Source: a virus
Direction: 5' to 3' (one strand)
DNA: 64,000 nt
IMG/VR virus record: IMGVR_UViG_3300045988_147571
The notes under the pieces were generated by a model. It did not search any database. It was not told the origin of the DNA and saw nothing but the letters and a program-made list of their open reading frames with translations. Below are positions 7,993 to 64,000 of the stretch, one piece after another. Numbering within the stretch: the stretch's first letter is position 1; each line of letters begins with the position of its first letter. The translations under genes and the position numbers were made by a program.

Positions 7993-8040
7993 TGCTCCTC
8001 TTCTATGAGGATAAAAATATATGATAGAAAGGAGGCTAAC

Positions 8041-9618: not shown

Positions 9619-9640
9619 GCTATCAAATAGCTCTTTTTTA
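9617..9640 (+). terminator. Rho-independent terminator
   Basis: GAGCTAT-CAA-ATAGCTC hairpin followed by TTTTTT. Confidence 0.7.
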
Positions 9641-9672
9641 TTGCCTAAAAATATTTAAAGGAGGAAATAAAA

Positions 9673-10146: not shown

Positions 10147-10164
10147 TGGAAGGAGGAATACATA

Positions 10165-19159: not shown

Positions 19160-21694
19160 ATGGCTGATTATACAATACAAGTAGGCGTAGAAGTTGAAGA
19201 TAGTAAATTGGATGCGCTGGAAACACGAATTAATTCATTAAAAGATAAACATGTTAAACTCAATGTGGATTTTGGTAATAGTAAGCAGTTGGCTAGAAAC
19301 GCTCAGACAGCGGTAAAAACTATTAATAAAGCTACTGTAAAAGCTGCCAAAAACAGTCCTTCAATTAAGGGGGCCAATCTTGTAGAACAAATGGTTGATC
19401 CCGAAAAAGCTTTAAAAGCAATGTCTAGTACAGTTGGCAAGCTATCTAAATATCAGGGAAAACTTGATTTAGGAGAAGTAAGACTTTCAGTTAATCAAGG
19501 GATTATGGGAGAACTAGATGGTCTTCTTAGTAAATTAAATGAAATTAAAGCAACTGCTAAGAACATGGGATCCATCAAACTTACTGTTGGTGATAATATT
19601 AAAACACAAGACGGTAAAATAGTTGTTGGATCAAATAGCAGTGCCTCTACTGGTTCTGTCAGATCATCTGGACTAACACTTAGACAAGCGCAGGCCGAAA
19701 TCAAAAAAAATATGAAAACCATTGGTACTTTACAAGAACAGTATATCAATGGTCATGTTGATGAATCTACATATAGACAGTCAAAAAAAACTATAGGACA
19801 AAGAAATGCTTATTTAGCAAGAATGGTGCAAACTCAAGGTACTGCTTCTGACTGGGTTACTTCTGCTACTGATTTTAGAGAAGCTCAAGCCAAGAATCGA
19901 GCTGCCTATAGAGAGATGATGTCTAGTGCTGATGCCTATGATAAAGTAATTAGTGATTTGGGTGAAAAACAAAAAACATTTAATGAAGCTGCTCAAGTAT
20001 ATAATTCTAACAGTAGAAGTCCATTAAATAAGACTTTAGGACCCGGATATCAAGCAAGGCTTACAGCTTTTAATGATGTCTATGGTCAATTAAAAGAGTC
20101 ACATGATAAAATCTCCACGCTTACTGGAGATGAAAAAGATCTTGAAAAAGTACGTTTCAGCGCTCTTAAATCTGAAGCTAATCGTCAAGCCAGACAGCTT
20201 AATAATGTGAGTCAGTTTTTCTCAAAAACTCCAAATAAATATAGTAGATCTGAATTTGTAGGTACAGACTTAGATGTGACTTCTGATAAAGTTCAGAATA
20301 AAATGTCACAAATGGTTGATAATCTTGCTAATGGCAGTAGATATACTAAAGAATTTAATGCAGCACAAGGAAAAATGTATGCTACAATAGACAGAGGCTC
20401 TGGTGTATTTGAAAAATATCAGCTTGCATACAAAAATGGGCCAGGTAATATCGATCAGTCTCTTAGCAAAGTCACTCAGAGCGTAAAACCTCTTTCTAGT
20501 TACATTTCTGAAATGGGACAAAAGTTCCGTAGTCTTAGCCAGTATCTTATCAGTAATTTCGGATTCCAAGCTTTAACAACAGGTATCAGATCAGGTGTTA
20601 CATCTATAAAAGAATTAGATTCAGCAATGACTGAATTAAAGAAAACCTCTGAAGGTACAAAACAGGAATATAGAGACTTTACTACTCAAGCTAGGAGTGA
20701 CGCTAAAGATATCGGTAGTACGACTACTCAGATTACTAATAGTGCTGCTGATTTCTCACGTCTTGACTACACACTTGGCGAATCTCAAACTCTAGCTAAA
20801 AATACTGGTATATTAAAAAATGTATCAGAATTTGAGTCTATAGATGATGCAACAACTGCTATGATTTCTATGATGAAAGCATATGATGTAAAAGTTGATG
20901 ATTCTATGGATCTCATTGATAAAATGAATCTTATTGGTAACAACTATGCAATTTCTACAGATGGAATTGCTACCGCTTTACAAGATTCAGGTTCAGCATT
21001 GGTAGCAGCGGGAAACGACTTTGACAAGTCAGTTGCTCTTGTGACGGCTGCTAATAGTGTAGTACAGGACCCATCAAAGGTAGGCGCTGGTCTTAGAACA
21101 ATTGCTTTACGACTTAGAGGCACTTCTGCTGAAGAATTATCTTCTATGGGTGAAGATACAGAAGGTCTTGTAGAGACCACTTCTAAACTTAATTCAAATA
21201 TTAAATCTCTTACTGCCGTTAACGGTAAGGCTGGAGTTTCTATTCTTGATATGAATGGAAACTATAGAGATACTTATGATATTTTAAAAGATATCTCTCA
21301 GGTTTGGGATGATATTGGTAAGCAAGATTTGGCAGATGGTCAGAATAGACAGGCTGCTCTGCTTGAAATGATGGCAGGAAAAAATAGAAGTAATATTCTT
21401 GCATCCATATTACAGCATCCTGAATTACTTACAGATGTTTATAATGATTCCGCAAATAATTATCAAAATTCAGCTCAGAACGAGCTTAATACATACCTTG
21501 ATTCTATCGAAGCAAAAACAACTAAAATTAAAGAATCTTGGTCACAGTTATGGCAATCAGAAGGTAGTACTAATACTTTTAAAGGATTGCTTGATATTGG
21601 CAACGGCGCTGTAGGACTCTTAAATGGTTTAGGACTCAATAAAACCTTAGCCGGAGTCGGCGGTATGCTTGTTAGCCATGCTATGAACTGGGGT
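19160..21694 (+). CDS. tape measure protein, exon 1
   Basis: TP901-type TMP core (DIGSTTTQITNSAADFSRL...GIATALQDSGSALVAAGNDFDKSVALVTAANSVVQDPSKVGAGLRTIALRLRG). Unspliced, the ORF ends at 21721 inside the P1 loop. Confidence 0.85.
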
Positions 21695-22114
21695 GGGACA
21701 AATTATCAGTTGGTCCTTTAGAAAACGCCCCATGTAACCTGGTGGTGACACGGAACGATCTCATATGAGAAAGGGGTTACTAAGCAAACAACCGAAACTG
21801 TCTTTATTCGAAGGAATAGAGAAATGCTTTTAATTTGGCATTCAGGGTGAACCGAAGTATATACTACTCCCCTATTACAGTAATGTAATAGGTATAGTAA
21901 CAACGTATATATATGGGTAATCTGCAGCGAAGCTTCTTTATTTTATAGAGAAGAACGTTCATCGACTATAATGGGAACTTGGTCTCCGGATCAAGAAGGA
22001 ATAGTCAGGACTGTTAGGCAGCTTACGCCGAATAAATTAAAGGGTAAATACATCTTACTCTTGTAAGCAATCTTACCTTATGTGCAAAGGTGATGTAAGC
22101 ACAAAAGCAAGAGA

Positions 22115-49138: not shown

Positions 49139-50002
49139 ATGGCGTTAATTCCAACCTGGTATTCTGCATCAACTAAACAAATTGCAGAAAAGGCTTTACA
49201 AAGAGGGGTGCTGAAGTACCCAGGACTTTGTTACATCCAAGACAGTAAGAGTATAGCGTGGGTGACCATCGACAATACATTAGAATATGTTAAAGGGGAC
49301 AAACAGATCACAGATGTAAAATGCATCGGATCAAACCTTATGTTTTTCTCTGGAGATAAACTACTTTTCTCTTACGACATATCTATGACTGACGAAGATA
49401 AAGGTCATATTGTTGAAGAAGTCAAGAAAACAATTGGATTAGATAATTATGTCAAATCTTCTGAGCTTTCTACTCTTTTAGATAATATAATCGGTAATCT
49501 TGAAGATAAGTCCACTGTTGTAGACTATATCAACAGCTTATCTTATAACAAATTATCTGATGTACCTATTGTAAATCTTATAGGTACACTTACTGTTCCT
49601 GTGAAGATATTATCACTTGATGATGGTATTTATAAAGTAAAAGGCCAATGTATCATTGGCGGAAACAATACTACTGTTCAATCTTCTGCAGACGACGTTC
49701 TGTATCTTGTATCTCATGACGCTGATACTTCCAGCACAACAATCACAAAAATGCAAGGAAAATCAATTACATTGTATTTCATTCAGCAAGATGGTGAATA
49801 TACGACTGATCGTTATGTCACTGAAAGCTGGATTAATGAACAGAATTTTGCAAGTGCTGATTCTGTAAAAGAATACGTTTCAAATATCATTGAGGAAACC
49901 GTTTTAAATGTTTTAGATGATCATATTGATGCTGCTTTAGATCGAAAACTTGGAGGTATTGATTCCGAAGATTTAACAAATATATTTCAAGGAGGAAACT
50001 AA
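49139..50002 (+). CDS. hypothetical structural protein
   Basis: 287 aa in the fibre module. Confidence 0.4.
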   Translation: MALIPTWYSASTKQIAEKALQRGVLKYPGLCYIQDSKSIAWVTIDNTLEYVKGDKQITDVKCIGSNLMFFSGDKLLFSYDISMTDEDKGHIVEEVKKTIGLDNYVKSSELSTLLDNIIGNLEDKSTVVDYINSLSYNKLSDVPIVNLIGTLTVPVKILSLDDGIYKVKGQCIIGGNNTTVQSSADDVLYLVSHDADTSSTTITKMQGKSITLYFIQQDGEYTTDRYVTESWINEQNFASADSVKEYVSNIIEETVLNVLDDHIDAALDRKLGGIDSEDLTNIFQGGN

Positions 50003-50004
50003 TT

Positions 50005-51075
50005 ATGGCAAAATTACAGTTCGCTACACTTTCTAATCTTCAGGAGTTCTTAAATCTGCATAATGTACAGATTGACTCTAAAATCAGTGAAGCTGTTAAA
50101 AGCTCAATTAAAACAGTATCTCAGTCAGAAGACGGATACACACTTTATTTCTACACAAAAACTGCTCCAGTAACTATTGATGAAGCAGCATTTACTATTA
50201 CTATTCCTCAGCCGACAGGAAAAGCTGACAAAGTAAAAGGCGCAGTAAAAGGTCATATTGCAGGTCTTGATGCAAACGGCAACCTTACTGATTCTGGTAA
50301 GTCAGTTGCTGATTTTGAAGTAGCTGGTGCTGCTGAAAAAGCAAAAACAGAAGTGATGGGATATGTTGGTACTATTCCTGCTGATGCTAAAGCTAAAAAT
50401 GTAGTTGCTTATATCAAAGAAGCTGTTACAGCTGGTCAGTATGATGATTCTGAATTAAAAGCAAACGTAGCTGCTAATACAGCTGCTATTGGAACTCTTA
50501 ACGGTACTGGCGAAGGCTCTGTAAAGAAAGCTGTTGCTGATGCTGTAGCTTCTATTGTTGCTGATGCACCAGAAGCATACGACACACTGAAAGAGATTTC
50601 TGACTGGATTTCAAGTCATGCATCTGATGCCGCAACAATGAACAGTCAGATTAAAACAAATAAGACGGATATTGCTAATCTGAAAACTTTGATTGGTACT
50701 CTTCCAGATACAGCTACATCCAAAGATATTGTAAGCTATATCGCTGAATATGTATCTAAAGCTCTTGCTGATTCTGACCTTTCTCAGTATGCAAAAGCTG
50801 CTGATCTTAAAGCTGCTGTAGGAAGAATTGATGCTATTGAAAAGAAATTACCTACATTAGAAGCTGCTGATAAAACAAACGCCGATAATATCGCAGCTAT
50901 AACAACAAGAGTAACTACTGCCGAAGGTAAGATTACTGCTCTTGAAAAAGACCTTGCTGCTGAAAAACCGAAGATTGCTAAGAATACATCTGACATCACC
51001 GCTCTTAAGGGGCTTGTTGGAGATGGATATGAAGCAATTCCAAGTGCATCTATCAAAGGTTTATTTACTGCGTAA
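50005..51075 (+). CDS. Ala-rich coiled-coil fibre protein
   Basis: Long Ala/Lys/Thr-rich helical repeats (AADLKAAVGRIDAIEKKLPTLEAADKTNADNIAAITTRVTTAEGKITALEKDL). Confidence 0.45.
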   Translation: MAKLQFATLSNLQEFLNLHNVQIDSKISEAVKSSIKTVSQSEDGYTLYFYTKTAPVTIDEAAFTITIPQPTGKADKVKGAVKGHIAGLDANGNLTDSGKSVADFEVAGAAEKAKTEVMGYVGTIPADAKAKNVVAYIKEAVTAGQYDDSELKANVAANTAAIGTLNGTGEGSVKKAVADAVASIVADAPEAYDTLKEISDWISSHASDAATMNSQIKTNKTDIANLKTLIGTLPDTATSKDIVSYIAEYVSKALADSDLSQYAKAADLKAAVGRIDAIEKKLPTLEAADKTNADNIAAITTRVTTAEGKITALEKDLAAEKPKIAKNTSDITALKGLVGDGYEAIPSASIKGLFTA

Positions 51076-51082
51076 AAGAAAA

Positions 51083-51102
51083 AGAGGGCATTTCTGCCCT
51101 CT
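51083..51102. terminator. hairpin shared by convergent genes (good terminator on the minus strand)
   Basis: AGAGGGCA-TTTC-TGCCCTCT hairpin. A T run follows on the minus strand only. Confidence 0.6.
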
Positions 51103-51113
51103 AAAATATTACT

Positions 51114-51452
51114 TTATTTTGCTTCTAACATATATTTAATAAATGAACCTATAGAAGCATTCTTCATATCTTCAATGGATAATAACTTATGTCCATCTGA
51201 TATGAGTTGTCTCATGTAATCAAATACATGAGCATTATGTATAATATTCTGGATTTCATCGAAAGTTATCATATCCATTGTGTTCATTTCGAAAAGCAAT
51301 ATTTTTGTTCCTTTTCTATTTTTATGTGTATCAATGAATTTTTTAATCGTTTCTTCGTCTGTAGTATTAACTTCATCTACTACATAACTTTCAAAGTGAT
51401 CCAGACGAATACATAATAATTTAATATAGCTTTTTATTTCAAAGTTAGCCAT
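51114..51452 (-). CDS. hypothetical protein, antisense moron in the fibre module
   Basis: 112 aa. Perfect RBS AAAGGAGGTGA. Has its own terminator. No recognisable motif. Confidence 0.6.
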   Translation of the reverse strand: MANFEIKSYIKLLCIRLDHFESYVVDEVNTTDEETIKKFIDTHKNRKGTKILLFEMNTMDMITFDEIQNIIHNAHVFDYMRQLISDGHKLLSIEDMKNASIGSFIKYMLEAK

Positions 51453-51541
51453 AATTCACCTCCTTTCCAATAACATTATATATTAATATTATCGAAATTT
51501 CTGCAGGTAAATTATGGAAATAGGAAGGATGTGAATAAAAA

Positions 51542-54500
51542 ATGAAGCAACAATTTCTTGATCTTAATGGATTAACAGAATTAGTTACATATTTAAAAAA
51601 GAGTATAACAGAACAAAAAGAAATACTTCCATATGCTTCCAATAAGCTGTTTCCTTCTACAGGTAATGTAAATACAATTTACATAGATACAGCAACAAAT
51701 ATCATTTATCGTTGGGACTCATCGAACAAGAAATATGAAATATTGGCTAAAGCAGTGAAATCAGTATCTATCTCAGAAAGTACTGAAAACGGAAAAATCA
51801 CACTCACTGTAGATGGTAATAAAACTACTGTTCCTATTCATGGATTGGGATCTGCTGCATATACAAATTCAAGTGCTTACTCTCCTGCCGGGCATACTCA
51901 TACAAAAGCTCAGGTGGGGCTTGGCAATGTAGATAATACTGCTGATGCTAATAAAAGTGTAAAACATGCAATTACTGCTGATAGTGCAACTACTGCAGGA
52001 ACAGCTACAAATGTATCCGCTGGAGAAGGTACTGCTGATGCAGCTAGACATGTTTGGTTTTCTGACTCTGCTACGGAGACAAAGCGAGCATACAGCAATA
52101 AGTTTAAATATAATCCTGTTACTAATAATCTGACGGTAAATGTTACAGGAAATGCTGCAACTGCAAGTAGTGTCGCATGGGGTAACGTTACAGGGAAACC
52201 TTCTACCTATGCTCCTTCTGCTCATAATCATGATGATTCTACTATCACTTCTCTCAATGCATCAAAGCTTTTTGGAACAATTGACATAGCAAGACTTCCA
52301 CATGGAGCATTAGAAAGATGTGTAATTGTTGCAGATGATACTGCGAGATTTGCTCTTACTACTGCTAAAATTCAACTTGGTGATACAGTCAAAGTAAATA
52401 AGACTCAGAAAATGTATTTTGTTATTGATGATAGTAAATTGAATTCTGAGGCTGGTTATACAGTTTATACTGCAGGATCTGCTACTTCTGTACCTTGGTC
52501 AGGTGTAACAGGAAAACCTACAACATTCACACCAAGTTCTCATACTCATCCATATCTTAGTGCTTTGAGTGTTTCTGGAAAAACTATTACTTATACAAAA
52601 GGTGATGGAACTACTGGGACTATTACTACGCAAGATACATGGAGAGGTATTCAGAATAATTTAACAAGTACAAGCACAACTGATTCTTTGAGTGCCGCTC
52701 AAGGTAAGATTTTGAAAGGATTAGTTGATGAAAAACTGTCATTGAGTGGTGGCACTATGACTGGAAATATTGCTTATAAAGGTTCTAAAGCTACTTATGA
52801 AATGATTAAATTCATAGATAATTCAAGTGATACATATGGTAATGGTATTGCTATTGGCGGCGGTGGTCTTACTATTATCGGAGGCGGAGAATCTTCTGAT
52901 GTTATAAAAAATGCTGCCAGTAGTGGCGGGGAAGAGCGATTAGTTCTTGCAAATGATGGTGCAATTGAATTTTATACCAATTGTCAGGATGGTATAGATA
53001 AATCTGTACATACAACCATTGATAATACTGGACTTTTTTCAGGTACTGCTGCCAATGCAAAAGCCGTACCATGGAGCGGAGTTACTGGAAAACCTACAAG
53101 TTATCCGCCAAGTAGTCATACTCATGCTTATTTGCCATTGTCTGGGGGAACTATGACTGGCGCTCTTAACTTCGCAAACGGCATTTGGAATGTAGTTGGC
53201 GATGATGTTGCGATCGGTGATATGAATATTAGTGGTACATTAGGTGTTATGGGTAAGAATGGTAATACAGCTATTAAATTGGTTCAATATGGTGCGTCTA
53301 CAACATCTGGATCAGCTGCTCCTGGAGTCACATGGATTTGTACAGGTGCTAATGCTTCTACTATTTCTGGAACTTTGTCTGGTACATTTTCTGGTAATTT
53401 GAGTGGTACTGCTACTTCGGCTAACGCTGCTCCGTGGTCTGGTATTACGGGGAAACCAAGTACATATCCACCATCAAGTCATACACATAATTACGCTGGC
53501 TCCTCTACAGCTGGTGGAATTGCTTATAATGCTAATGCACTATATAAAAATTCATCAACAAGACAAACTTCTGCAAATTATGATTTAACAAACGATAATA
53601 TTTATGCTCATAGGGTTACTTATTCTGTTGCTTCAAGCACTATGACAACAGCAAAACCACCTACTGATGCACATATCCTTACATTTGGTTGGGACACTAA
53701 TGCTGGTTACGGCGCACAGTTTGCAGTTGGTAATTCATTTTCAAACCATTTATATATTCGAGGAGCAAAATCTGAAACGAAAGATAACAAAAATGTATGT
53801 ACGTGGGAATCTAGTTGGAGAACTGTTTTGGATTCTGGAAACTATACTTCATATACAGTTACAAAAACTGGTTCTGGTGCATCTGGTACATGGGGAATTA
53901 ATGTCTCTGGAGGCGCTGCTTATCCTACAGGTTTTAATTCAAGGGTTACTTCGGCTACTTGGGGAAATCAAACAGGTACTTTAATCACAGACTGGCATAC
54001 AAGTAATGGTGGAGATATTCAATTTCGTGATAACAGTGGCCAGTTAAATGTAATTACCGATGGATTCTTTTACCAAAACGAAGGTAGAAATTTAGTTCTT
54101 GATTCATCGAATTATAGCAACTATGCTGCAACAAAAGGACATACGCATAACTATGCAGGATCAGCGTCAGCAGGTGGAAATGCGAACGCAGCTGTAAAAT
54201 TGGCTAATGCAAGAAAAATTGGTAATGCTTCATTCGATGGTACTGCTAATATTACCTTATCTCAGATGGGACTTAACGTTCCTGTTGAAATTACAAAAGC
54301 TGACTATCTTGCAAAAAAGAAAGCTGGAACTTTAAATGCAAATACCTATTACAATGTTATTGATGAATATGATTCTGCAAATGTTATTAACGACTCATCT
54401 GTAACAGCCAACAGTGCATTTTCAAGTACTAAATCGGAAAAAACATATGCAAAGAAAAGCGCCATAATTAATACTACTCTTACAGCTAGTAAATGGACTG

Positions 54501-54724
54501 GTTCCTCTGCCCCGTATACATATGTATTACCTGTATCTGGTGCAACTACTTCAAATATAGTAGAAATTAATTATGCTTCTAATGCATCATCTCAAGCAAT
54601 AGAGGCATATCAGAACGCTATGTTAGCAGATGGAGGACAGACTACAAATCAGATTACTATAAAAGCAACCGAGAAACCAACTGTAGATATTCCTATTACT
54701 ATTGTTATAAGAAATGATTTATAA
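51542..54724 (+). CDS. tail fibre with repeated W-G-x-(V/I)-TGKP...SSH-x-H motifs
   Basis: Six H-x-H sites (GHTHTK, SAHNHD, SSHTHPY, SSHTHAY, SSHTHNY, GHTHNY). QVGLGNVDNTAD and FDGTANIT fibre motifs. Confidence 0.7.
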   Translation: MKQQFLDLNGLTELVTYLKKSITEQKEILPYASNKLFPSTGNVNTIYIDTATNIIYRWDSSNKKYEILAKAVKSVSISESTENGKITLTVDGNKTTVPIHGLGSAAYTNSSAYSPAGHTHTKAQVGLGNVDNTADANKSVKHAITADSATTAGTATNVSAGEGTADAARHVWFSDSATETKRAYSNKFKYNPVTNNLTVNVTGNAATASSVAWGNVTGKPSTYAPSAHNHDDSTITSLNASKLFGTIDIARLPHGALERCVIVADDTARFALTTAKIQLGDTVKVNKTQKMYFVIDDSKLNSEAGYTVYTAGSATSVPWSGVTGKPTTFTPSSHTHPYLSALSVSGKTITYTKGDGTTGTITTQDTWRGIQNNLTSTSTTDSLSAAQGKILKGLVDEKLSLSGGTMTGNIAYKGSKATYEMIKFIDNSSDTYGNGIAIGGGGLTIIGGGESSDVIKNAASSGGEERLVLANDGAIEFYTNCQDGIDKSVHTTIDNTGLFSGTAANAKAVPWSGVTGKPTSYPPSSHTHAYLPLSGGTMTGALNFANGIWNVVGDDVAIGDMNISGTLGVMGKNGNTAIKLVQYGASTTSGSAAPGVTWICTGANASTISGTLSGTFSGNLSGTATSANAAPWSGITGKPSTYPPSSHTHNYAGSSTAGGIAYNANALYKNSSTRQTSANYDLTNDNIYAHRVTYSVASSTMTTAKPPTDAHILTFGWDTNAGYGAQFAVGNSFSNHLYIRGAKSETKDNKNVCTWESSWRTVLDSGNYTSYTVTKTGSGASGTWGINVSGGAAYPTGFNSRVTSATWGNQTGTLITDWHTSNGGDIQFRDNSGQLNVITDGFFYQNEGRNLVLDSSNYSNYAATKGHTHNYAGSASAGGNANAAVKLANARKIGNASFDGTANITLSQMGLNVPVEITKADYLAKKKAGTLNANTYYNVIDEYDSANVINDSSVTANSAFSSTKSEKTYAKKSAIINTTLTASKWTGSSAPYTYVLPVSGATTSNIVEINYASNASSQAIEAYQNAMLADGGQTTNQITIKATEKPTVDIPITIVIRNDL

Positions 54725-54739
54725 AAAGGAGGCGATAAC

Positions 54740-55282
54740 ATGGCAATTTACAAAGGTGAACAATGTCTTGCCGGAGTTGGTAAGAATGCAACTATTAAAA
54801 TCGGTACTGCTAAAACAGGTACTTCAGCTGCAGTAACCAATTCTGGTACAGATACAGATGCAATATTAAATTTTACACTGCCCAAAGGTGATCAGGGAGT
54901 TGGAATTTCAAGTGTTATCCCTCATTATCTTGCAAGTCCTAAATCACAGGGAGTAACCAGATCAACTACTGGATGGGCGACTTCCGCTCAGGTTATGACA
55001 TCTACAAACAAATATTTGTGGTGCTATCATGAATTTGTTTTGACAAACAATAATCATTTGTACACTACTCCAACAGTTATAGGTGTTTATGGAGATAAAG
55101 GTGATCCGGGTACAACTGATTATAATGGATTACAGAATAAACCGGTCGTTAATGGAGCTGTAACTGCTTATCAGTCAGATATTATGAAATCTCAGTTAAG
55201 AAATGTGACATTCTCTACTGAAGAACCTAAGACATCTGATGGTAAGCCTGGTGATATGTGGGTGGTGTATGTCGATGAGTAA
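54740..55282 (+). CDS. small fibre or adaptor protein
   Basis: GDKGDPG collagen-like bit. The C-terminus is EEPKTSDGKPGDMWVVYVDE. Stop/start overlap ATGAGTAA with the next gene. Confidence 0.45.
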   Translation: MAIYKGEQCLAGVGKNATIKIGTAKTGTSAAVTNSGTDTDAILNFTLPKGDQGVGISSVIPHYLASPKSQGVTRSTTGWATSAQVMTSTNKYLWCYHEFVLTNNNHLYTTPTVIGVYGDKGDPGTTDYNGLQNKPVVNGAVTAYQSDIMKSQLRNVTFSTEEPKTSDGKPGDMWVVYVDE

Positions 55283-57983
55283 TATTAAAACTGGTGATAT
55301 TTTAAACTTTGGTTATACTGGTGCTGTTCAGAGTGTAACATTGCCTAAAGGAACATATAAATTGGAGTGTTGGGGCGCTCAGGGTGGAAATAGCAATCAA
55401 TCAAACGGAACTTATGGTAATGGTGGAAAAGGTGGATATTCTACTGGTATTTTAAATGTTTCAACTAATACCACTATATATATAACAGTAGGAGGGCAAG
55501 GTCAAAATGGTGCCCTTAATACTAGAACTGCTGGTGGTTTTAACGGTGGTGGTGATGGTTATGGTACTAACAACTCTGGCGTAGGTGGCGGAGGTGGTGG
55601 AGCTTCTGATATTTCTTTAATGCATCCTGTATTTTCACAGTCATCTTATTTTATAAATAAAATTCGAGATACAAACTCACTATTAAGTAGAATTATCGTA
55701 GCAGGTGGCGGAGGATCTGCAGGATATGATGTTAGTAATAATGCAGCTAATGGTGGTGCTGGCGGAGGTACTACAGGACAAGATGGATTATCAAACCGCG
55801 TTTATCATGGCACTGGCGGAAAACAAACTACTTTTGGTACAGGAGGATCATCAGAGGAATCTAATAGGTATTCCGTCCAAGCTAAATTCGGATGTGGAGC
55901 ATCAGCCAGTAATTCTACAGATGTAGCGCCTGGTGGAGGCGGTGGCTGGTATGGAGGTGGATTACATTGTGATTCTGCTGGTGGCGGTTCTGGTTATGTC
56001 TACACCTCTTCTACAGCCTCTAATTACCCATCAGGTTGTTTATTAAACTCTTCTTATTACTTAACCGATGCCAAAACCATAGCAGGCAATAATTCTTTTG
56101 TTTCTCCCACAGGTTCATCTGAAACCGGACACTCAGGCAATGGATATTGTCGAATTACTGTTATTAAATGTAAGAGTACTGCGCTATATACCAGAATAAA
56201 TAATTCAATGAAAAAGGCTATTGCTTTTTATTTTAAATTAAATAATAACAAAATGTACGGTGTTGGTTCTGCTAATTTTAATGGTACTGTTATGAATTTT
56301 GATTATACTGGTTCAGTTCAAACTGCTACATTGGCTCCTGGAACATATAAGTTAGAATGCTGGGGTGCTCAAGGCGGGAATTGCTATTGGAGTAGCGTGG
56401 AACGCCCTGGAAGTTTAGGCGGGTATAGTTCGGGCATTTTAAAAATCACTTCTAAAACAAATTTATTTTGTTACGTTGGTGGCGCCGGTGAAAGACGGAC
56501 AATTGTTTCGATGGGTGGTGGTGGCTTCAATGGTGGAGGTCATGCATATAGTTATACATCTTCTAATCCGTCAGGAGCTGGTGGAGGAGGTTCAGATATA
56601 AGGATTGGAACCGATTCTCTATATTCAAGAGTTATCGTAGCAGGTGGAGGAGGCGGAGCAGGATATGATAATTCTGGAAATTATGGGTATGGTGGAGGAA
56701 CAGTTGGGGGCACTCAAACTGTTAACAGTAATTCCGAACGACAGGCAAATGGTGGTTCTCAAACTAACGGTGGTATAAATAAATCTGGATATACTACTTC
56801 AGGAGCTTTTGGTGTCGGAGGAAATGGAACTCAACAATGGACTTCCGGCGGCGGTGGCGGCTGGTATGGAGGAGCTGGTTGTTACTGTGATTATGCTGGC
56901 GGAGGTTCAGGTTATGTATATACTTCATCTACAGCTAAAAACTATCCATCTGGATGTTTGTTAAACTCTTCTTACTATCTCACTAATGCTTCTACTATTG
57001 CTGGCAACAAATCATTCCCTTCTCCTACAGGTTCTACAGAAACAGGACACTCAGGTAACGGCTATGTAAGAATCACTAAATTAACAGATGTAATATATCT
57101 CACTCATGCTAATAACGACATAATGAATTTTGATTACACAGGTTCCACACAATCTAAAACTCTAAAACCAGGTACATATACAATAGAATGCTGGGGTGGC
57201 CAAGGAGGAAGTTATAGTAGTTACATAGGCGGATACGGTGGTTATTCCAAAGGCACAATTACTCTTACTAAGGTGACTACTGTTTATGTGTCTGTTGGCG
57301 GAGCTGGATCTTCCTCTTCTACTACTGCAGGATTCAATGGTGGAGGAGCTGGTATTTCTTCTGGTAGAGGTGGCGGCGGCGCCACAGATGTTCGTATAGG
57401 TCAAAATTCTCTATATTCAAGAGTTATCGTGGCTGGGGGCGGAGGAGGCGCTGGAGTTACAGGTGCTAATGTTAATCCTTGTGGTTGTGGCGGTGGAGAA
57501 TATGGTGGAGATGGCTATAATAATAATACCACTGGTTCCTATACTACTGGTCAAAACAGATCTGGTGGTAGCGCTTCTCAAACTGCAGGTGGAATAACTT
57601 GGAATACAGGCGCTCAGGCTACTTTTGGTCAAGGCGGAAATGCTTCTGGCTACTCTTGTGGAGGAGGTGGTGGCGGCTGGTACGGTGGAGGCGGTGCATA
57701 TGATAGTGACTCTGACTCTGATGGACGTTGGGGTGGAGGTGGATCTGGATATGTTTATACCTCTTCTACAGCTAAAAATTATCCTAACGGATGCCTACTC
57801 AATTCCACTTATTATTTAACGAATGCTCAAACAATAGCCGGAAACACTTCTTTCACTTCTCCTACAGGATCAGCAGAAACTGGACATACAGGTAACGGAT
57901 TCTGCAGAATTACAAATTTGAACCCAACACAATATGGATTATACGTAAAAACTAACTCAGGTTGGAAACACATAGATTTATAA
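55275..57983 (+). CDS. protein with three tandem glycine-rich-domain (GRD) modules
   Basis: Three copies of about 270-290 aa. Each reads NFDYTG..Q..TL.PGTYKLECWGAQGG ... GGFNGGG ... GGGGGASDIR ... SRVIVAGGGGGAG ... GGGGGWYGG ... GGGSGYVYTSS ... GHSGNGYCRIT. Confidence 0.7.
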   Translation: MSNIKTGDILNFGYTGAVQSVTLPKGTYKLECWGAQGGNSNQSNGTYGNGGKGGYSTGILNVSTNTTIYITVGGQGQNGALNTRTAGGFNGGGDGYGTNNSGVGGGGGGASDISLMHPVFSQSSYFINKIRDTNSLLSRIIVAGGGGSAGYDVSNNAANGGAGGGTTGQDGLSNRVYHGTGGKQTTFGTGGSSEESNRYSVQAKFGCGASASNSTDVAPGGGGGWYGGGLHCDSAGGGSGYVYTSSTASNYPSGCLLNSSYYLTDAKTIAGNNSFVSPTGSSETGHSGNGYCRITVIKCKSTALYTRINNSMKKAIAFYFKLNNNKMYGVGSANFNGTVMNFDYTGSVQTATLAPGTYKLECWGAQGGNCYWSSVERPGSLGGYSSGILKITSKTNLFCYVGGAGERRTIVSMGGGGFNGGGHAYSYTSSNPSGAGGGGSDIRIGTDSLYSRVIVAGGGGGAGYDNSGNYGYGGGTVGGTQTVNSNSERQANGGSQTNGGINKSGYTTSGAFGVGGNGTQQWTSGGGGGWYGGAGCYCDYAGGGSGYVYTSSTAKNYPSGCLLNSSYYLTNASTIAGNKSFPSPTGSTETGHSGNGYVRITKLTDVIYLTHANNDIMNFDYTGSTQSKTLKPGTYTIECWGGQGGSYSSYIGGYGGYSKGTITLTKVTTVYVSVGGAGSSSSTTAGFNGGGAGISSGRGGGGATDVRIGQNSLYSRVIVAGGGGGAGVTGANVNPCGCGGGEYGGDGYNNNTTGSYTTGQNRSGGSASQTAGGITWNTGAQATFGQGGNASGYSCGGGGGGWYGGGGAYDSDSDSDGRWGGGGSGYVYTSSTAKNYPNGCLLNSTYYLTNAQTIAGNTSFTSPTGSAETGHTGNGFCRITNLNPTQYGLYVKTNSGWKHIDL

Positions 57984-57998
57984 AAGGAGGGCTTAACT

Positions 57999-58277
57999 AT
58001 GCCAATTATATTTCATGGAACAGGTAGTGGCGGCTCTGCTAAAAAACTAAAAACCGCACGAACTATTAATGGTACGAATTTTGATGGTACAGCTAATATT
58101 ACTACTTCTAGTTGGGGAACAACAAGAACCGTTACTGTAGGAAATACAAGTAAATCTGTAAATGGTTCTGGAAATGTAAGTTGGTCTATGGATGAAATAG
58201 GTATTCATGTGTCTAGTTCTGAGCCTACTGCTTCTCAGGGAAAGAATGGTGATATTTGGATTGTTTATGATAGTTAA
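57999..58277 (+). CDS. small fibre or adaptor protein
   Basis: FDGTANIT motif. The C-terminus SSSEPTASQGKNGDIWIVYDS is paralogous to the end of 54740-55282. Confidence 0.45.
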   Translation: MPIIFHGTGSGGSAKKLKTARTINGTNFDGTANITTSSWGTTRTVTVGNTSKSVNGSGNVSWSMDEIGIHVSSSEPTASQGKNGDIWIVYDS

Positions 58278-58288
58278 AAATAGAAAGG

Positions 58289-60697
58289 ATGGTGAGAGTT
58301 ATGGCTTGTAGTTCTGGATGCGGTACAAGTTGCTCTACGAATTGTTCTACTACTTCGTCTGGAAACTGCGGTGGATGTGGTACTGCGTGTTCTACAAGTT
58401 GCCAAACCACTGCTAGTGGTCAAAGTTGTAGTGGATGTGGAACATTGTGCTCAAGTAGTTGTGGTGATAGTTGTCATGGCACCTGTAGCGGTAGTTGCGT
58501 CGGTACTTGTAGTGATACCTGCACCGCTGGTTGTAACACTACTTGTTATTATACTTGCACCGGCACTTGTGATAGCACTTGTTCTGCAAGTTGCGCAAAT
58601 GATTGTTCCGGTACTTGCTCAGGAGGCTGTCAAGGTTGTACTGCTTCATGTCAAAATGATTGTTCTGGTTGTTCTGGTTGCGGAGGATCTTGTTCACACA
58701 GCTGTTCAGGCGATTGCGAAGGCGGCTGTTACGGATCATGCAATACTACTTGTACCGCTGATTGTCAAAATGACTGTAGCTCTGGATGTAATGATGGATG
58801 TAAAGATTCTTGCAAAAACACTTGTAAAGATACATGTACCGGTACATGCGTAGGCGGATGCGGTGCTTCTTGTGATAATACCTGTAACACTGGATGTGAA
58901 AACTCTTGTAGCTCTAATTGCACATCATTATGTAGCATAGCTGGTACTTATGGTGAATCAGAAACCAATATATTAAACTTTGATTACACTGGTGCTGTTC
59001 AGAGTGTAACATTGAAACCCGGGAGATATGTGCTTGAATGTTGGGGTGCTCAAGGTGGTAATGGATGTACGGGAAATTCATATAAAGGCGGTGCCGGAGG
59101 ATATTCCAAAGGTACTCTCACACTAGCCAAAACAGAAACTTTATACATATATGTTGGTGGACAAGGAGTTAGCGCTGCAGCTTCTGGCAATGGAAATATT
59201 CGAGAAGGTGGATTCAACGGTGGTGGATCTGGACGTGATTGGGGTAGTACTGGTCATGGCGGTGGCGGAGGTGGTGGCGCCTCTGATATTCGAATTATAA
59301 CTGATAGCTTCTATGCTCGTGTTATAGTCGCCGGCGCTGGTGGTGGAGCTTCTGATAATGGAGCAGGCGGTGCTGGCGGCGGCACTTCTGGGATTTCATC
59401 ATCCTCTTCCGCTGGAACAGCAACTGGAGGCAGCGGTTTTGGTCAAGCGGCGGCATCAAGTTGCACTTCCTATGAATGTGGTGGCGGTGGCGGTGGCTGG
59501 TATGGCGGCTATGGCGGATCTTCAGAAAACTATCCTGGCGGTGGTGGATCAGGTTACGTATATACATCTTCTTCTGCTTCTAACTACCCTTCTGGGTGTC
59601 TCTTAAATTCTTCATACTATCTCACCGATGCTCAAACCATTGCAGGAAATCAAACTTTTAAATCACCTACCAATACAAATGAAACGGGTCATTATGGTAA
59701 TGGCTATTGTCGAATTACATGTTATGTTCCTAAGAAATCATATTTCTGCAAAGTGGGTAATACTATAAAACAATCTCCTGTTGTAATTGCAAAAGCAAAT
59801 AATAAATTATTCGACACAGGAGCCGCAGTAATGAATCTTAGTTATACAGGAACTTCTCAAAATGTAGTCCTTCCAGCAGGTACGTATAAATTTGAATGCT
59901 GGGGAGCACAGGGAGGTTATAGATCATCTTCTACTTATGGCGGTAAAGGTGGTTACTCCGTCGGAACTATTACGCTTACACAAACAACTAATCTATTTGT
60001 ATATGTTGGAGGTTCAGGTAACTCTGCTACTGCTTATACTAATGGTATATATGCTGGTGGATTTAACGGCGGTGGTTATAGATATGGATATAAAGGTGGC
60101 GGTGGTGCTACTGATATTCGTATTGGTAAAGATGATCTTTATGCAAGAATAATTGTTGCAGGCGGTGGAGGTTCTGATGGTGCTAGTAATAAAACAGGTA
60201 TGTATGGTGGAGGACTCGAAGGTGGAACTACTACTGAAAGTTGTGGTTCTGGTGGATATGGAGGAACACAAACAGGAAATACGTGGCTAACTACTACTCG
60301 AACCACTTCTGCTACATCTACTTCTAACTGTTATGCTGGATTTGGATTCGGCGGAAATGGATGTTATAGTTCTTCTGGCTATGCAGGTGCTGGCGGTGGA
60401 GGCTGGTATGGAGGTTCCGGTTCATATCCAGATGGCTCTGGCGATGATGACAGAGGAGGAGGCGGCGGCTCAGGTTATGTTTACACTGCAAAAACTGCTG
60501 CAAATTATCCTTCTGGAAATTACGTCAACTCTTCTTATTATCTCACTGACGCTTCCACTGTCGCAGGAAATCAATCATTTACTGCTCCAGATGGATCAAC
60601 TGAAACTGGTCATTCCGGTGATGGATTTTGTCGTATTACAAGGCTCAAAAATGCGACAGTATATGTAAAACAAAATAATGTATGGATCAAGAGCTAA
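58289..60697 (+). CDS. Cys-every-fourth-residue domain fused to two GRD modules
   Basis: The N-terminal 209 aa hold about 52 Cys, mostly C-x3-C. Two modules of the same family as 55275-57983 follow. An alternative start is ATG 58301. Confidence 0.7.
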   Translation: MVRVMACSSGCGTSCSTNCSTTSSGNCGGCGTACSTSCQTTASGQSCSGCGTLCSSSCGDSCHGTCSGSCVGTCSDTCTAGCNTTCYYTCTGTCDSTCSASCANDCSGTCSGGCQGCTASCQNDCSGCSGCGGSCSHSCSGDCEGGCYGSCNTTCTADCQNDCSSGCNDGCKDSCKNTCKDTCTGTCVGGCGASCDNTCNTGCENSCSSNCTSLCSIAGTYGESETNILNFDYTGAVQSVTLKPGRYVLECWGAQGGNGCTGNSYKGGAGGYSKGTLTLAKTETLYIYVGGQGVSAAASGNGNIREGGFNGGGSGRDWGSTGHGGGGGGGASDIRIITDSFYARVIVAGAGGGASDNGAGGAGGGTSGISSSSSAGTATGGSGFGQAAASSCTSYECGGGGGGWYGGYGGSSENYPGGGGSGYVYTSSSASNYPSGCLLNSSYYLTDAQTIAGNQTFKSPTNTNETGHYGNGYCRITCYVPKKSYFCKVGNTIKQSPVVIAKANNKLFDTGAAVMNLSYTGTSQNVVLPAGTYKFECWGAQGGYRSSSTYGGKGGYSVGTITLTQTTNLFVYVGGSGNSATAYTNGIYAGGFNGGGYRYGYKGGGGATDIRIGKDDLYARIIVAGGGGSDGASNKTGMYGGGLEGGTTTESCGSGGYGGTQTGNTWLTTTRTTSATSTSNCYAGFGFGGNGCYSSSGYAGAGGGGWYGGSGSYPDGSGDDDRGGGGGSGYVYTAKTAANYPSGNYVNSSYYLTDASTVAGNQSFTAPDGSTETGHSGDGFCRITRLKNATVYVKQNNVWIKS
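58307..58933 (+). repeat. protein-level C-x3-C periodic low-complexity region
   Basis: CSSGCGTSCSTNC...CKDSCKNTCKDTCTGTCVGGCGASCDNTCNTGCENSCSSNCTSLC. Codons are degenerate, so it is not a clean DNA tandem repeat. Confidence 0.9.
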
Positions 60698-60716
60698 GGA
60701 AACTTAGCTCTTATTT
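60691..60716 (+). terminator. Rho-independent terminator or attenuating hairpin
   Basis: GAGCTAAG-GAAA-CTTAGCTC hairpin followed by TTATTT. Confidence 0.6.
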
Positions 60717-60735
60717 AAATTAAGGAGGATTTTCT

Positions 60736-61107
60736 ATGAAACTTATTTTAAAAGACAATACTGAAATTACAGTAACTCGTATGAACAATACTTATGCATA
60801 CGAAAATTTCGTAGATGGTATGGGTTATGACATGAATAAAAATATTTCTGCAAGTTTTACTATTTTCGACTCCGATAAAAGCTTTGAAGAATTAAAAACT
60901 ATTTTATCAGGAGAAAATAGAGAAGGATTTAGACTTGCTTATGGCGTAACAGAAAAAGATTTCCCAGGAATGAAAATCGAATCTATTTCTGAGGATATTG
61001 CCAATGATAGAAGTATTATCACAATTTCTATGAATGGAACTAAAGTAGAAGAAAAAACAGAGAACTCAGCTACAGATGCTGAAAAAGATACAAATAAAGA
61101 AGTTTAA
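60736..61107 (+). CDS. hypothetical protein (123 aa)
   Basis: RBS AAGGAGGA. First gene of the radical SAM operon. Confidence 0.45.
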   Translation: MKLILKDNTEITVTRMNNTYAYENFVDGMGYDMNKNISASFTIFDSDKSFEELKTILSGENREGFRLAYGVTEKDFPGMKIESISEDIANDRSIITISMNGTKVEEKTENSATDAEKDTNKEV

Positions 61108-61141
61108 TTAGTCAACAAAGGATAGAAAGGAATAAACAGAT

Positions 61142-61471
61142 ATGAGAAGAATTATTGTAAAAATTGATCGTGACAAAGCAGTTGAACTTGAAAGAGTTAA
61201 CTTTGAATTAAGTTTTACAAAGGATGTTATACAAAGACTTATTGAGTCCCATCCGAATGATACAGAGCTTATTAATGGAGAAGTATTCCAGAAATATAAT
61301 CGTCAGGGCGCAGAACTTCAGGCTAAATACTCTCTCCTTGCTGCCGAAATTGAAAGAGAATATATCCCTGAGAAATTAAAAGGTCATAAGTATACATGGA
61401 ATATTCCTAATGGTACAAATGACTTTATAATTGATATTCAGTGTAATTGTGAAATCGAGGGAATTGAATGA
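61142..61471 (+). CDS. hypothetical protein translationally coupled to the radical SAM enzyme
   Basis: ATGA stop/start overlap with 61468. The C-terminus is DIQCNCEIEGIE. Confidence 0.45.
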   Translation: MRRIIVKIDRDKAVELERVNFELSFTKDVIQRLIESHPNDTELINGEVFQKYNRQGAELQAKYSLLAAEIEREYIPEKLKGHKYTWNIPNGTNDFIIDIQCNCEIEGIE

Positions 61472-62802
61472 GAAAACATGAACAATATTCTGATCAGATA
61501 GCTAGGTTGTATCCGCCAGAGAAGCCTGAGACCGATGACGGACAACGAATTTTAACTCAAAGCGTTACTTTTCAAGTAACTGATGATTGCAATCTCGCAT
61601 GCAAATATTGTTATCAAACCTGCAGAAATAAGCGTTCGATGTCATTTGAAACTGCAAAGAAATTTGCTGATTTAATTATTTCAGGAGATAAAGGCTTTTC
61701 TAAGTATATCAACCCAGAGAAATCTCCAGGATTAGTTGTGGATTTTATTGGAGGAGAACCTTTTCTTGAAATAGAATTGATTGACCAGATTTGCACATAT
61801 ATCATGGATCGATTGATAGAACTTGATCATCCATGGGCCATGAAAACTAAATTTTCTATATGTTCTAATGGTACTCTTTATAGAGAACCTAAAGTGCAGG
61901 ATTTCTTACGTAAATGGGCCAATAGATTATCTTTTTCAGTCACTATAGATGGTAACAAGGAATTACATGATTCTTGTAGAGTATTCCCTGATGGAAGTCC
62001 AAGTTATGATCTTGCAGTTGATGCAGCTACAGACTGGATGAAAAAAGGTTATTATATGGGAAGTAAGATTACTATAGCTCCTGGCAATATAAGTTATCTT
62101 TATGATGCAATAGTTCATATGACAGAACTTGGCTATAATGAAATTAATGCTAACTGTGTATTTGAAGAGGGATGGACTACTATGCATGCTACTGTTCTTT
62201 ATGATCAAATGAAACGTATATCTGATTATTTCTTAGAAAAAGATTATGATTTCGAACATGACTTTTTCTGCTCTTTATATAATGATGATTTCTTTAAACC
62301 AAAAGATGTGGCAGAGATTCAAAATTGGTGCGGTGGGACAGGTTCCGCTATGATTTCATGTGATCCTGATGGACATATTTTTCCTTGCATCAGATATATG
62401 GAATCTTCTCTTAATGGACAACAAGAACCTTATTCTATTGGAGATGTAGATAATGGGATAGGCTACTGTGATTGTTATAAATGCAGACTTAATTGCCTTA
62501 ATTCTATTGATCGTAGAACTCAGAGTACAGATGAGTGCTTCTACTGCCCTATTGCAGAAGGCTGTGCATGGTGTTCAGCTTACAACTATCAAGTATTTGG
62601 AACTCCGGATAAAAGAGCGACATTTATCTGTGTTATGCACAAAGCTCGTGCTTTAGGTAATTATTACTTCTGGAATAAATATTATAGAAAACATGATCTG
62701 AAAAAACGTATGGAGATTTTTGTGCCTGATGAATGGGCACTTGAGATTATCTCTGAATCAGAACTTAATATGTTGAAAGAATTGGAAAGAGAGGACGATT
62801 AG
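61468..62802 (+). CDS. radical SAM enzyme with SPASM domain (anSME or peptide-maturase family)
   Basis: CxxxCxxC in DDCNLACKYCY. SPASM-type motifs WCGGTGSAMISCDPDGHIFPC and CFYCPIAEGCAWC. Confidence 0.85.
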   Translation: MRKHEQYSDQIARLYPPEKPETDDGQRILTQSVTFQVTDDCNLACKYCYQTCRNKRSMSFETAKKFADLIISGDKGFSKYINPEKSPGLVVDFIGGEPFLEIELIDQICTYIMDRLIELDHPWAMKTKFSICSNGTLYREPKVQDFLRKWANRLSFSVTIDGNKELHDSCRVFPDGSPSYDLAVDAATDWMKKGYYMGSKITIAPGNISYLYDAIVHMTELGYNEINANCVFEEGWTTMHATVLYDQMKRISDYFLEKDYDFEHDFFCSLYNDDFFKPKDVAEIQNWCGGTGSAMISCDPDGHIFPCIRYMESSLNGQQEPYSIGDVDNGIGYCDCYKCRLNCLNSIDRRTQSTDECFYCPIAEGCAWCSAYNYQVFGTPDKRATFICVMHKARALGNYYFWNKYYRKHDLKKRMEIFVPDEWALEIISESELNMLKELEREDD

Positions 62803-62816
62803 TCCTCTCTCTTTTT
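62788..62816 (+). terminator. Rho-independent terminator
   Basis: AGAGAGGAC-GATTA-GTCCTCTCT hairpin followed by CTTTTT. Confidence 0.7.
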
Positions 62817-62902
62817 AATATCCATAGTCTATATTTACATTTCTATTTTAAGAACAATCAGTTCTTATCTTTAATTCACATCTACGAAGGAGGCTTGATA
62901 TT

Positions 62903-64000
62903 ATGACAGAAATCAAAGGTATTGATGTTTCCCGTTGGAACGGAACAATTGATTGGAAAACTGTTGCTAATTATGGCATGGGCTTTGCTATCCTAAGAAT
63001 CACAGAAAAAGGAAATATTGTTGATAGCACATTCGAACCAAACTACAAAGGCTGCATTGAGAATAAGATTCCTGTTGGAGTCTATAAATACAGCTATGCT
63101 ACTACTATTGCTCAGATTGAAGATGAAGCAAATGTAGTTATTAAAACATTGAATAAAAGAAAACTGGATTATCCAGTATTTCTTGATATAGAGGATAAAT
63201 GTCAGGAGAATTTATCTGACAGTTTAATGATGAAAATGATTGAAACGTTTAGAGCTATTATTGTCAAAGCTGGATATAAATTTGGTATTTATTGCGGTTA
63301 TTCTTGGTATCAGAACCAGTTACCAGAGGGCGCGAAAAAGTACGATTGCTGGGTTGCTCGATATCCTAATAATGATACCGGTGAATTACAGGAAAGATTA
63401 AGAGTTCCTGCTTCTACTGGTGTTATTGGATGGCAATATTCTAGTAAGGCAACCATTCCTGGAATGCCAACAAAAACCGATCGAAGTGTATTCTATAAAG
63501 ACTATTCTAAATCTTCTACTACTTCTACAAACTCTCCCAAACCAACAACTACACAAGGAAGTGATGCTATGAACAAAGAAAAGGCTATTGATGCTCTTAT
63601 TGCTTGCGCTGAAAATGAGGTTGGATATTTAGAAAAGAAATCTAACTCTCAGCTTGATGATAAGACTGCAAATGCGGGTTATAATAACTATACTAAGTAC
63701 TGGAGAGACGTATATCCAGAATATCAGGGACAGGCATGGTGTGCTGCATTTGTGAGCTGGTGTATGATGAAAACATTCGGTCTTGAGACAGCTAAAAAGC
63801 TCCTTAAACATTGGCCTTATGTATATTGTCCTACTCTTGGAAATCTCTTTACAAAGTATGCAAATCCACAGCGAGGAGATATTGTAATCTTCTATCGTAA
63901 TGGCACATTTACACATACAGGATTAGTTACTAAAGTTGAAGGGGATAAGTTCTACACAATTGAAGGTAATACCTCAGGAGGATCTTCTATCGTTCCAAAT
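62903..64000 (+). CDS. endolysin, GH25 muramidase plus C-terminal CHAP/NlpC-like domain (partial, runs off window end)
   Basis: Not in the ORF track because it has no stop in the window. RBS GAAGGAGG. MTEIKGIDVSRWNGTIDWKTVANYGMGFAILRITEKG...FLDIED is a GH25 signature. After a Ser/Thr linker, QAWCAAFVSW...FTHTGLV...IEGNTSGG fits a Cys-His amidase or peptidase. Confidence 0.8.
   Translation, partial: MTEIKGIDVSRWNGTIDWKTVANYGMGFAILRITEKGNIVDSTFEPNYKGCIENKIPVGVYKYSYATTIAQIEDEANVVIKTLNKRKLDYPVFLDIEDKCQENLSDSLMMKMIETFRAIIVKAGYKFGIYCGYSWYQNQLPEGAKKYDCWVARYPNNDTGELQERLRVPASTGVIGWQYSSKATIPGMPTKTDRSVFYKDYSKSSTTSTNSPKPTTTQGSDAMNKEKAIDALIACAENEVGYLEKKSNSQLDDKTANAGYNNYTKYWRDVYPEYQGQAWCAAFVSWCMMKTFGLETAKKLLKHWPYVYCPTLGNLFTKYANPQRGDIVIFYRNGTFTHTGLVTKVEGDKFYTIEGNTSGGSSIVPN

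Follow-up and report, generated by a model that had tools for sequence, protein, structure and literature searches.

The cysteine (Cys) repeat encoded at 58307-58933 (+) of IMG/VR virus record IMGVR_UViG_3300045988_147571, analysed here as a window of 64,000 nt (the whole stretch of DNA under study), is a CXXX-repeat target of the kind that is paired with a radical S-adenosylmethionine (SAM) maturase and is catalogued in NCBIfam and Pfam. The repeat is very probably the target of the radical SAM enzyme encoded at 61468-62802 on the same strand, and the complete chain of argument, by which it forms a radical SAM-stapled CXXX rod of a tail-fibre-type protein, is considered probable. As far as can be told, the new features are the leaderless N-terminal position of the repeat, its fusion to glycine-rich fibre modules, a conserved pair of helper genes, and the systematic placement of the cassette at tail-fibre loci.

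Translation of 58307-58933 yielded 209 residues with 52 Cys, the exact number estimated in an earlier prediction made from the nucleotide sequence alone (hereafter the original prediction). The 51 Cys-to-Cys spacings comprised 44 of 4 residues, five of 3, one of 8 and one of 9, in agreement with the C-x3-C pattern, occasional C-x2-C and two longer gaps described there, and 44 spacings of 4 were attained in 0 of 20,000 shuffles of the domain residues. The other positions were occupied by S (40), G (34), T (31), N (13), D (12), A (8), Q (5) and a few Y, K, L, H, V and E, so that the predicted G/S/T/N/D spacers and absence of a hydrophobic core both held. Cys accounted for 24.9% of the domain versus 1.06% of the other long plus-strand open reading frames (ORFs), and no second Cys run of this type was seen in six frames of the 64-kb window. 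Cys was encoded by 35 TGT and 17 TGC codons, and the DNA repeats in the domain were short and weak (by TRF and a second repeat finder; best: period 12, 4.4 copies, 70% matches); the DNA is therefore not a clean tandem array, as had been noted. Among solved structures, no chain similar to the Cys domain was found.

The original prediction recorded the architecture as unrecognised, which proved incorrect for the repeat itself. Target models exist in NCBIfam as TIGR04114 (an 18-residue Cys-rich repeat), TIGR04117 and TIGR04118 and in Pfam as PF27846 (tSAM_targ_Cxxx_rpt), and an enzyme family, TIGR04115 ("radical SAM peptide maturase, CXXX-repeat target family"), is named for this target. Two of three sub-segments of the domain scored 24.9 and 30.6 bits against TIGR04114 (cutoff 20 bits; E values 1.9e-5 and 2.9e-7), the first 60 residues were unmatched, and the whole domain scored 10.1 bits, a low value that is probably due to composition correction. 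A homologue of 85% identity (P0152) carries precomputed PF27846 and PF12810 assignments. Across the family, 1830 of 2080 Cys spacings were of 4 residues, with Gly the most frequent residue at X2. The radical SAM gene that the original prediction placed nearby was found to be of SPASM type, and its product matched TIGR04115 over profile positions 1-359 of 359 (533.3 bits, E 3.5e-160; curated cutoff 350 bits). The cutoff was also reached by the enzymes of L041, L049, L052, L062 and L180 and was not reached by that of L048 (300.6 bits). The comparative-genomics approach behind the CXXX families is summarised in PMC10114670. No phage or tail-fibre link of the CXXX repeat was found in the literature searched, which was short on subscription journals. 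The CXXX target families were delineated by comparative genomics after the manner of Haft and Basu (2011).

Coupling of repeat and enzyme was assessed in samples drawn by different components of the cassette. In a sample chosen by the enzyme (47 viral and two GenBank contigs), a CXXX-run ORF lay just upstream in 45 of the 45 loci for which sufficient upstream DNA was available. Species-representative genomes scanned with an enzyme alignment gave at least 452 confirmed relatives; the best 80 of these at least 452 loci, chosen by the enzyme alone, were examined for an adjacent repeat, and in 76 of them a CXXX-run ORF was present no more than 3 kb away on the same strand. Of the four exceptions, two (L058 and L064) were contigs cut off just upstream of the enzyme gene. 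Selection by the second glycine-rich module instead gave 60 viral loci, of which 45 contained both repeat and enzyme, 15 contained neither and none contained only one; a separate protein carries the repeat in the concordant loci L178 and L180 (enzyme 69% identical) and L179 (44%). Co-occurrence with SPASM enzymes, which the original prediction had proposed as a check, was thus found in bacterial and viral loci alike. The search for homologues depended on the query: the Cys domain alone missed the closest relatives, presumably owing to low-complexity words, and the full-length protein found them.

Constraint on the Cys residues was examined in an alignment of four diverged lineages (enzyme identity 81-90%). 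Among the 47 ungapped Cys columns, 45 were Cys in all four lineages, and 37 of these 45 contained TGT/TGC switches; only 37 of 158 non-Cys columns (23%) were identical. The suggestion that the periodicity is maintained at the protein level is therefore upheld. Relatives without Cys periodicity, which would have marked the region as unconstrained low complexity, were clearly not what was found, the Cys columns being kept in the diverged lineages. Most indels in the repeat were of 4 or 8 residues; the first 34 and the last ~60 residues were gap-free and better conserved, and residues 39-158 varied in length. Identity at non-Cys positions was 15-50% in the repeat versus 52-57% in the glycine-rich modules, where 5 of 11 Cys columns were conserved.

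Targets near the enzyme fall into several styles. The first consists of 55-66-residue peptides in some clostridia, and the second of 90-350-residue proteins with a twin-arginine motif, mostly from Bacteroidales (75 of 107 ORFs) and often multicopy. The third style comprises phage or prophage proteins of about 190-360 residues in which a partner domain of about 100 residues, with the motif F..LK.RVK.EM.RR followed by GSSxxC..C.GLC, precedes the repeat; in the fourth the repeat comes first and the partner domain after (P0042, P0032, P0084, L062 and L065). The window lineage has two glycine-rich modules in place of the partner domain. It shares with other CXXX systems (TIGR04115 with TIGR04114, TIGR04117 or TIGR04118) the C-x3 period, the small polar spacers and the same-strand adjacency to the enzyme. 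Usual targets are short peptides or proteins with a twin-arginine signal or an N-terminal domain, whereas the window protein has a repeat of 52 Cys starting at residue 3 and followed by ~580 glycine-rich residues within a phage tail-fibre module, and its cassette has an additional conserved 109-residue helper and a 123-residue ORF. It also differs from a canonical precursor of peptides made on the ribosome and modified after translation (RiPPs), being a 798-residue polypeptide with no leader or signal peptide; no twin-arginine motif was present in the window protein.

In most of the Bacteroidales targets among the bacterial genome loci (L054-L133), the twin-arginine motif RRxF[LF]K precedes the repeat, and several loci carry two to five tandem target genes, an arrangement that suggests export of an already modified or folded product.

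The enzyme was compared with characterized radical SAM/SPASM proteins. In an alignment of seven sequences (relatives 35-81% identical), the Cys of the CX3CX2C motif (C41/C45/C48) and seven SPASM Cys (C288, C307, C357, C360, C366, C369 and C388) were invariant. The closest solved structure was CteB, the SCIFF (thermocellin) maturase (5WGG, E 3e-19; also 5WHY), which aligned over the radical SAM core and SPASM region; as the alignment begins at CteB residue 93, the window enzyme lacks the N-terminal peptide-recognition domain of CteB. The next NCBIfam models each scored below their own cutoffs: PapB (NF047865) 170.4 bits versus 340, the SCIFF maturase (TIGR03974) 97.9 versus 425 with the match starting at profile position 97, QhpD 97 versus 453, and CcpM 95.5. 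CefA/CefB (NF038107) likewise combines a periodic Cys peptide with a SPASM maturase, although its Cys occur at every fifth residue rather than every fourth and the window enzyme reached 53.8 bits against a cutoff of 600.

Two side observations concern the enzyme gene in relatives. In L032 (IMGVR_UViG_3300045988_168947, 8807-11206) the radical SAM gene is a single ORF of 799 codons with an in-frame insert of ~355 residues within CX3CX2C, the junctions reading CNLACSY/CLSGDTKI and AVHN/CYQG around an internal LAGFYDAEGH, with the +1 Cys serving as the third cluster ligand. By its sequence hallmarks the insert is a putative intein with a LAGLIDADG homing endonuclease; the same split pattern is repeated in L033-L036, and the window enzyme has no insert. 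Inteins usually occupy conserved sites of functionally important genes, and a location inside the Fe-S motif therefore suggests that the enzyme matters to the phage. In L050 (597-3013), L053 (6760-8864) and L179 (10364-11626), all in-frame stops of the radical SAM and CXXX genes are TAG (1-6 per gene) and the genes end in TAA, so the cassette also occurs in phages in which TAG is seemingly reassigned.

The chemistry of the modification was considered by analogy with the nearest enzymes. PapB, CteB and QhpD form Cys-to-carbon thioethers (PMC11002830; PMC9413430), and since all three of these nearest relatives are thioether-forming, thioether stapling is the best guess for the CXXX domain, held at slightly better than even. 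PapB, which with PapA makes the ranthipeptide freyrasin and is the second-best model for the window enzyme, is a SPASM enzyme; it forms six small thioether rings one after another on C-x3-D repeats and tolerates other ring sizes and Glu (PMC11002830; PMC9413430). The window protein differs from PapA in having ~50 repeats rather than six, in having no leader peptide, and in being modified, if it is, as a domain of an 800-residue protein; its i+4 position is Cys, with 12 Asp per 52 Cys. The nearest precedent for the proposed stapling of a protein is QhpD/QhpC of quinohemoprotein amine dehydrogenase, in which a protein subunit, and not a secreted natural product, receives Cys-Asp and Cys-Glu thioethers from a radical SAM/SPASM enzyme and keeps them as permanent structural staples (PMC11002830), although QhpC has three or four links and is a subunit of a bacterial enzyme. 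The X positions over 44 units of the window repeat include 27 T, 12 N and 14 D/E, the acceptor residues known from the PapB, CteB and QhpD systems. Of the roles offered in the original prediction, that of radical SAM substrate is the one backed by the TIGR04115 match and the coupling, and the thioether ladder emerged as the likeliest chemistry on grounds of homology.

Under the proposed mechanism, the radical SAM enzyme would modify the 209-residue CXXX domain, most likely producing many intramolecular thioether bonds. The Cys sulfur would be held on an auxiliary Fe-S cluster (PMC10177961); the 5'-deoxyadenosyl radical would abstract a hydrogen, and the Cys sulfur would then bond to the carbon of a nearby residue, with cross-linking possibly repeated along the chain in the manner of the six successive rings of PapB. 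The 109-residue helper, and perhaps also the 123-residue ORF, may present the substrate, a role proposed since neither a recognition domain fused to the enzyme nor a substrate leader is present. The outcome would be a covalently stapled rod or linker, resistant to proteases and independent of redox state, that occupies the N-terminus of a tail-fibre-type protein and is placed between a small virion-proximal fibre piece and the two distal glycine-rich modules, and such a rod would suit particles assembled in the reducing cytoplasm of anaerobes. That part of a tail fibre is stapled by dozens of thioethers on a leaderless polypeptide, by the phage's own radical SAM enzyme and a new small helper, is offered as a tentative proposal, short of an even chance.

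Neither small protein encoded between target and enzyme matched Pfam, NCBIfam or PHROG. The 109-residue helper is conserved in L041 and L046, aligned with the prophage helpers at an hhalign probability of 99.3% (E 9e-21), and was matched weakly in some bacterial loci. When the small ORFs of distant cassettes were compared by pairwise BLAST, the similarity was not significant, and the helpers were linked by profile comparison only. The helper was modelled by AlphaFold2 as a two-helix hairpin with a small sheet (predicted local distance difference test, pLDDT, 90.9), and a fold search with this model against the PDB returned generic helical hairpins only (best E 0.47). A PqqD-like RiPP recognition element was considered for the helper and rejected, given the predicted hairpin flanked by strands, the PDB result and the lack of profile matches.

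Several points weigh against the stapled-fibre reading and are gathered here. Of the 45 viral loci with both repeat and enzyme, many come from a single lineage and do not count as independent events. The virion location is drawn from gene context, and the PHROG families matching the glycine-rich part are annotated "unknown function". The thioether chemistry is projected from relatives whose family models were matched below cutoff, and the C-x3-D logic of PapB does not transfer directly, as i+4 is the next Cys and there are 14 Asp/Glu per 52 Cys. AlphaFold2 gave no confident structure for the Cys domain (residues 1-226 of the full protein at pLDDT 21-30, mean of the whole protein 39, from a 10-sequence alignment). 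The substrate has no leader, the enzyme has no RiPP recognition element, and the helper fold is unlike known elements of this type. No experimental study of the TIGR04115 reaction was found in the literature searched.

The CXXX/glycine-rich-domain (GRD) protein is probably located in a virion fibre, judging by its neighbouring genes and by the recurrence of the cassette after tail-fibre genes. The original description of a virion fibre-type protein is a reasonable one given the fibre-like ORFs upstream, and goes no further than those neighbours allow. In a P2-like prophage of Anaerobacterium chartisolvens the gene order is baseplate J, Tail_P2_I, Phage_tail_fib, CXXX protein, two small ORFs, radical SAM enzyme and lysis genes, and tail or tail-fibre PHROG matches lie just upstream of the cassette in L041, L054, L055, L056, L061 and L062. 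Cultured carriers of such prophages are A. chartisolvens DSM 27016 (L052/L060) and Desnuesiella massiliensis mt10 (L055). The repeat recurs as part of a fibre-tip locus that is variable, being fused to the GRD modules in one lineage and free-standing elsewhere.

A syntenic relative of the window, L180 (IMGVR_UViG_3300045988_124554, 7126-10748), carries the CXXX repeat on a separate protein of 357 residues with 65 Cys and an N-terminal partner domain. The gene order there is a protein with three GRD modules (3xGRD), a 166-residue ORF, the partner-domain/CXXX protein, helper, enzyme, a relative of the 123-residue ORF (ORF-A) and endolysin; the 166-residue ORF and the 92-residue ORF of the window start alike (MPI[IV]FHGTG). 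Because the L180 repeat is free-standing, the fused architecture of the window lineage appears to reflect a rearrangement of domains at a variable fibre-tip locus.

The same gene order admits a reading in which the protein is a released product, a large RiPP-like or adhesin-like molecule that is expressed late and freed at lysis, its proximity to fibre genes merely reflecting a late-operon position. This is considered unlikely. The cassette does always close the structural module, with the lysis genes following immediately, and in its other branches the family consists of small peptides or exported proteins unconnected with phages; against this, the repeat is fused to 580 glycine-rich residues resembling those of the neighbouring 3xGRD protein, the CXXX/GRD and 3xGRD proteins each follow a small fibre-like ORF, the location directly after tail-fibre genes recurs in unrelated prophages, and the cassette contains no signal peptide, protease or transporter.

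The Cys ladder might alternatively be a metal- or Fe-S-binding rod, for example one holding ions between the chains of a trimeric fibre, with the radical SAM enzyme unrelated or preparatory; its probability is judged to be low. The extreme Cys density, small polar spacers and lack of a hydrophobic core would fit such a rod, and the His-x-His iron sites of T4 gp37 are a precedent for metal-binding fibre repeats. The twin-arginine signals of the 75 of 107 bacterial members mark a route typical of cofactor-loaded or pre-folded proteins, which is equally compatible with a cross-linked product. Metal binding leaves unexplained why the coupling to one radical SAM/SPASM family is near-obligate and why that family is close to thioether synthases, and no Fe-S or metallothionein model was matched in the profile searches.

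It is very improbable that the Cys remain without modification, or are joined in ordinary disulfides once released, within a low-complexity spacer while the radical SAM enzyme acts elsewhere. Like a spacer, the domain changes almost freely at its X positions and has a middle part of variable length, but the Cys are near-invariant amid this rapid change, repeat and enzyme are gained and lost together, and the association is family-wide in loci picked by the enzyme alone.

The reading frame was also examined. The start codon is likely ATG 58301 (M-A-C-S-S-G-C) and not 58289; homologues of the CXXX/GRD protein are called from MACS and a Shine-Dalgarno-like GGTGAG precedes 58301, which places the first repeat Cys at residue 3. 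The +1 frame over the Cys domain is mostly open in all relatives because of composition, and the third codon position of the Cys/GRD frame holds most of the differences between relatives. The proposed N-terminal fusion to two glycine-rich modules was confirmed: both lie in one ORF with the repeat, and PF12810 (ALK_LTK_GRD) matched over two stretches (326.1 bits, gathering score 24.5, E 2.5e-97). That the Cys frame is untranslated and the true genes are the +1-frame ORF of 160 residues and a glycine-rich protein of 555, as the gene calls for L134-L136 and GenBank OP075123.1 and the largely open +1 frame would have it, is scarcely credible, since the Cys frame runs into the glycine-rich frame, the alternative start cuts the GRD at V248, the Cys columns are kept with synonymous switches, third-position changes dominate in the Cys frame, other callers yield full-length MACS proteins, and the repeat family is present in many architectures.

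In those public records (L134-L136, 6342-6824 and 7001-8668; GenBank OP075123.1) the region is called as a Val-rich 160-residue +1-frame ORF and a 555-residue GRD protein that begins at an internal GTG, and the CXXX domain is missing from the deposited annotation of this phage lineage.

Radical SAM enzymes of the CXXX-repeat family are widely distributed among gut anaerobes. The phage version suggests a concrete role, an enzyme-stapled structural segment of a receptor-binding fibre, and offers a minimal cassette of four genes, those for the target, two helpers and the enzyme. If the stapled-fibre reading is correct, RiPP-type chemistry would reach beyond small secreted peptides into virion architecture, and the protein would be the first structural virion component with a radical modification of RiPP type and would represent a new, covalently laddered kind of fibre. 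It would give phages of strict anaerobes, whose reducing cytoplasm bars disulfides, a covalent stabilisation that needs none, and the cassette would constitute a leader-independent, highly processive cross-linking system of use to protein engineering.

The window corresponds to a tailed-phage late region in which the large terminase is encoded at 3182-6247 and the tape measure at 19160-21721, and a protein of 1060 residues with phage fibre repeats is encoded just upstream of the cassette. Features of the cassette and its neighbours are listed in Table 1. The similarity of the GRD to solved ALK structures was weak when compared directly (E 0.003). Megablast of window positions 50000-64000 against deposited phages gave no match, and tblastn yielded no cultured phage, its only finds being two faecal contigs, both unannotated, that encode a close enzyme.

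Table 1. Features of the CXXX-repeat cassette and adjacent genes (window coordinates).
Feature	Position	Strand	Remarks
180-aa ORF, tail-protein similarity	54740-55282	+	pairs with the 3xGRD protein
914-aa protein, three glycine-rich modules (3xGRD)	55239-57983	+	sister of the CXXX/GRD protein
92-aa ORF, tail-fibre repeat similarity	57999..58277	+	PHROG tail-fibre families, best E 5e-12; conserved in relatives
CXXX-repeat / 2x glycine-rich-domain protein gene	58301..60697	+	798 aa from ATG 58301; mechanical ORF 58289-60697
CXXX-repeat domain, predicted radical SAM maturase target	58307..58933	+	both ends conserved, middle (ORF residues 39-158) length-variable
+1-frame ORF over the Cys domain, 160 aa	58371..58853	+	most likely a by-product of composition; chosen by public gene calls
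Glycine-rich module 1 (ALK/LTK GRD type)	58967..59722	+	ORF residues 227-478; PF12810; phrog_1589 over residues 227-478
Glycine-rich module 2	59861..60643	+	ORF residues 525-785; best PF12810 stretch
ORF-A, 123 aa, semi-conserved accessory of the phage-type cassette	60736..61107	+	relatives beside the cassette in L041, L046, L057, L059 and L180
Helper, 109 aa	61142..61471	+	stop overlaps the radical SAM start by 4 nt; between target and enzyme genes
Radical SAM/SPASM maturase, 444 aa	61468..62802	+	third gene downstream of the CXXX gene; TIGR04115

Two successive gene pairs upstream of the helpers are alike, the 180-residue ORF with the 3xGRD gene and the 92-residue ORF with the CXXX/GRD gene. 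In each, a small tail-fibre-like ORF that ends in GDxWxVY precedes a multi-module glycine-rich protein, the two being separated by a few bases or overlapping slightly, and only the second pair bears a CXXX repeat. The paired ORFs look like a modular two-piece fibre, in which the 92-residue ORF is probably the virion-proximal partner piece.

In near-identical contigs the cassette is followed by a GH25/CHAP/SH3 endolysin, which points to a Gram-positive host. A few kb past the endolysin, two of the relatives, which are phage contigs of 170-177 kb, carry minus-strand genes for PRA-CH, IGPD and histidinol dehydrogenase (L134, 13760-15668; L135, 13759-15245); these histidine-biosynthesis genes could be auxiliary metabolic genes or mark a junction with host DNA.

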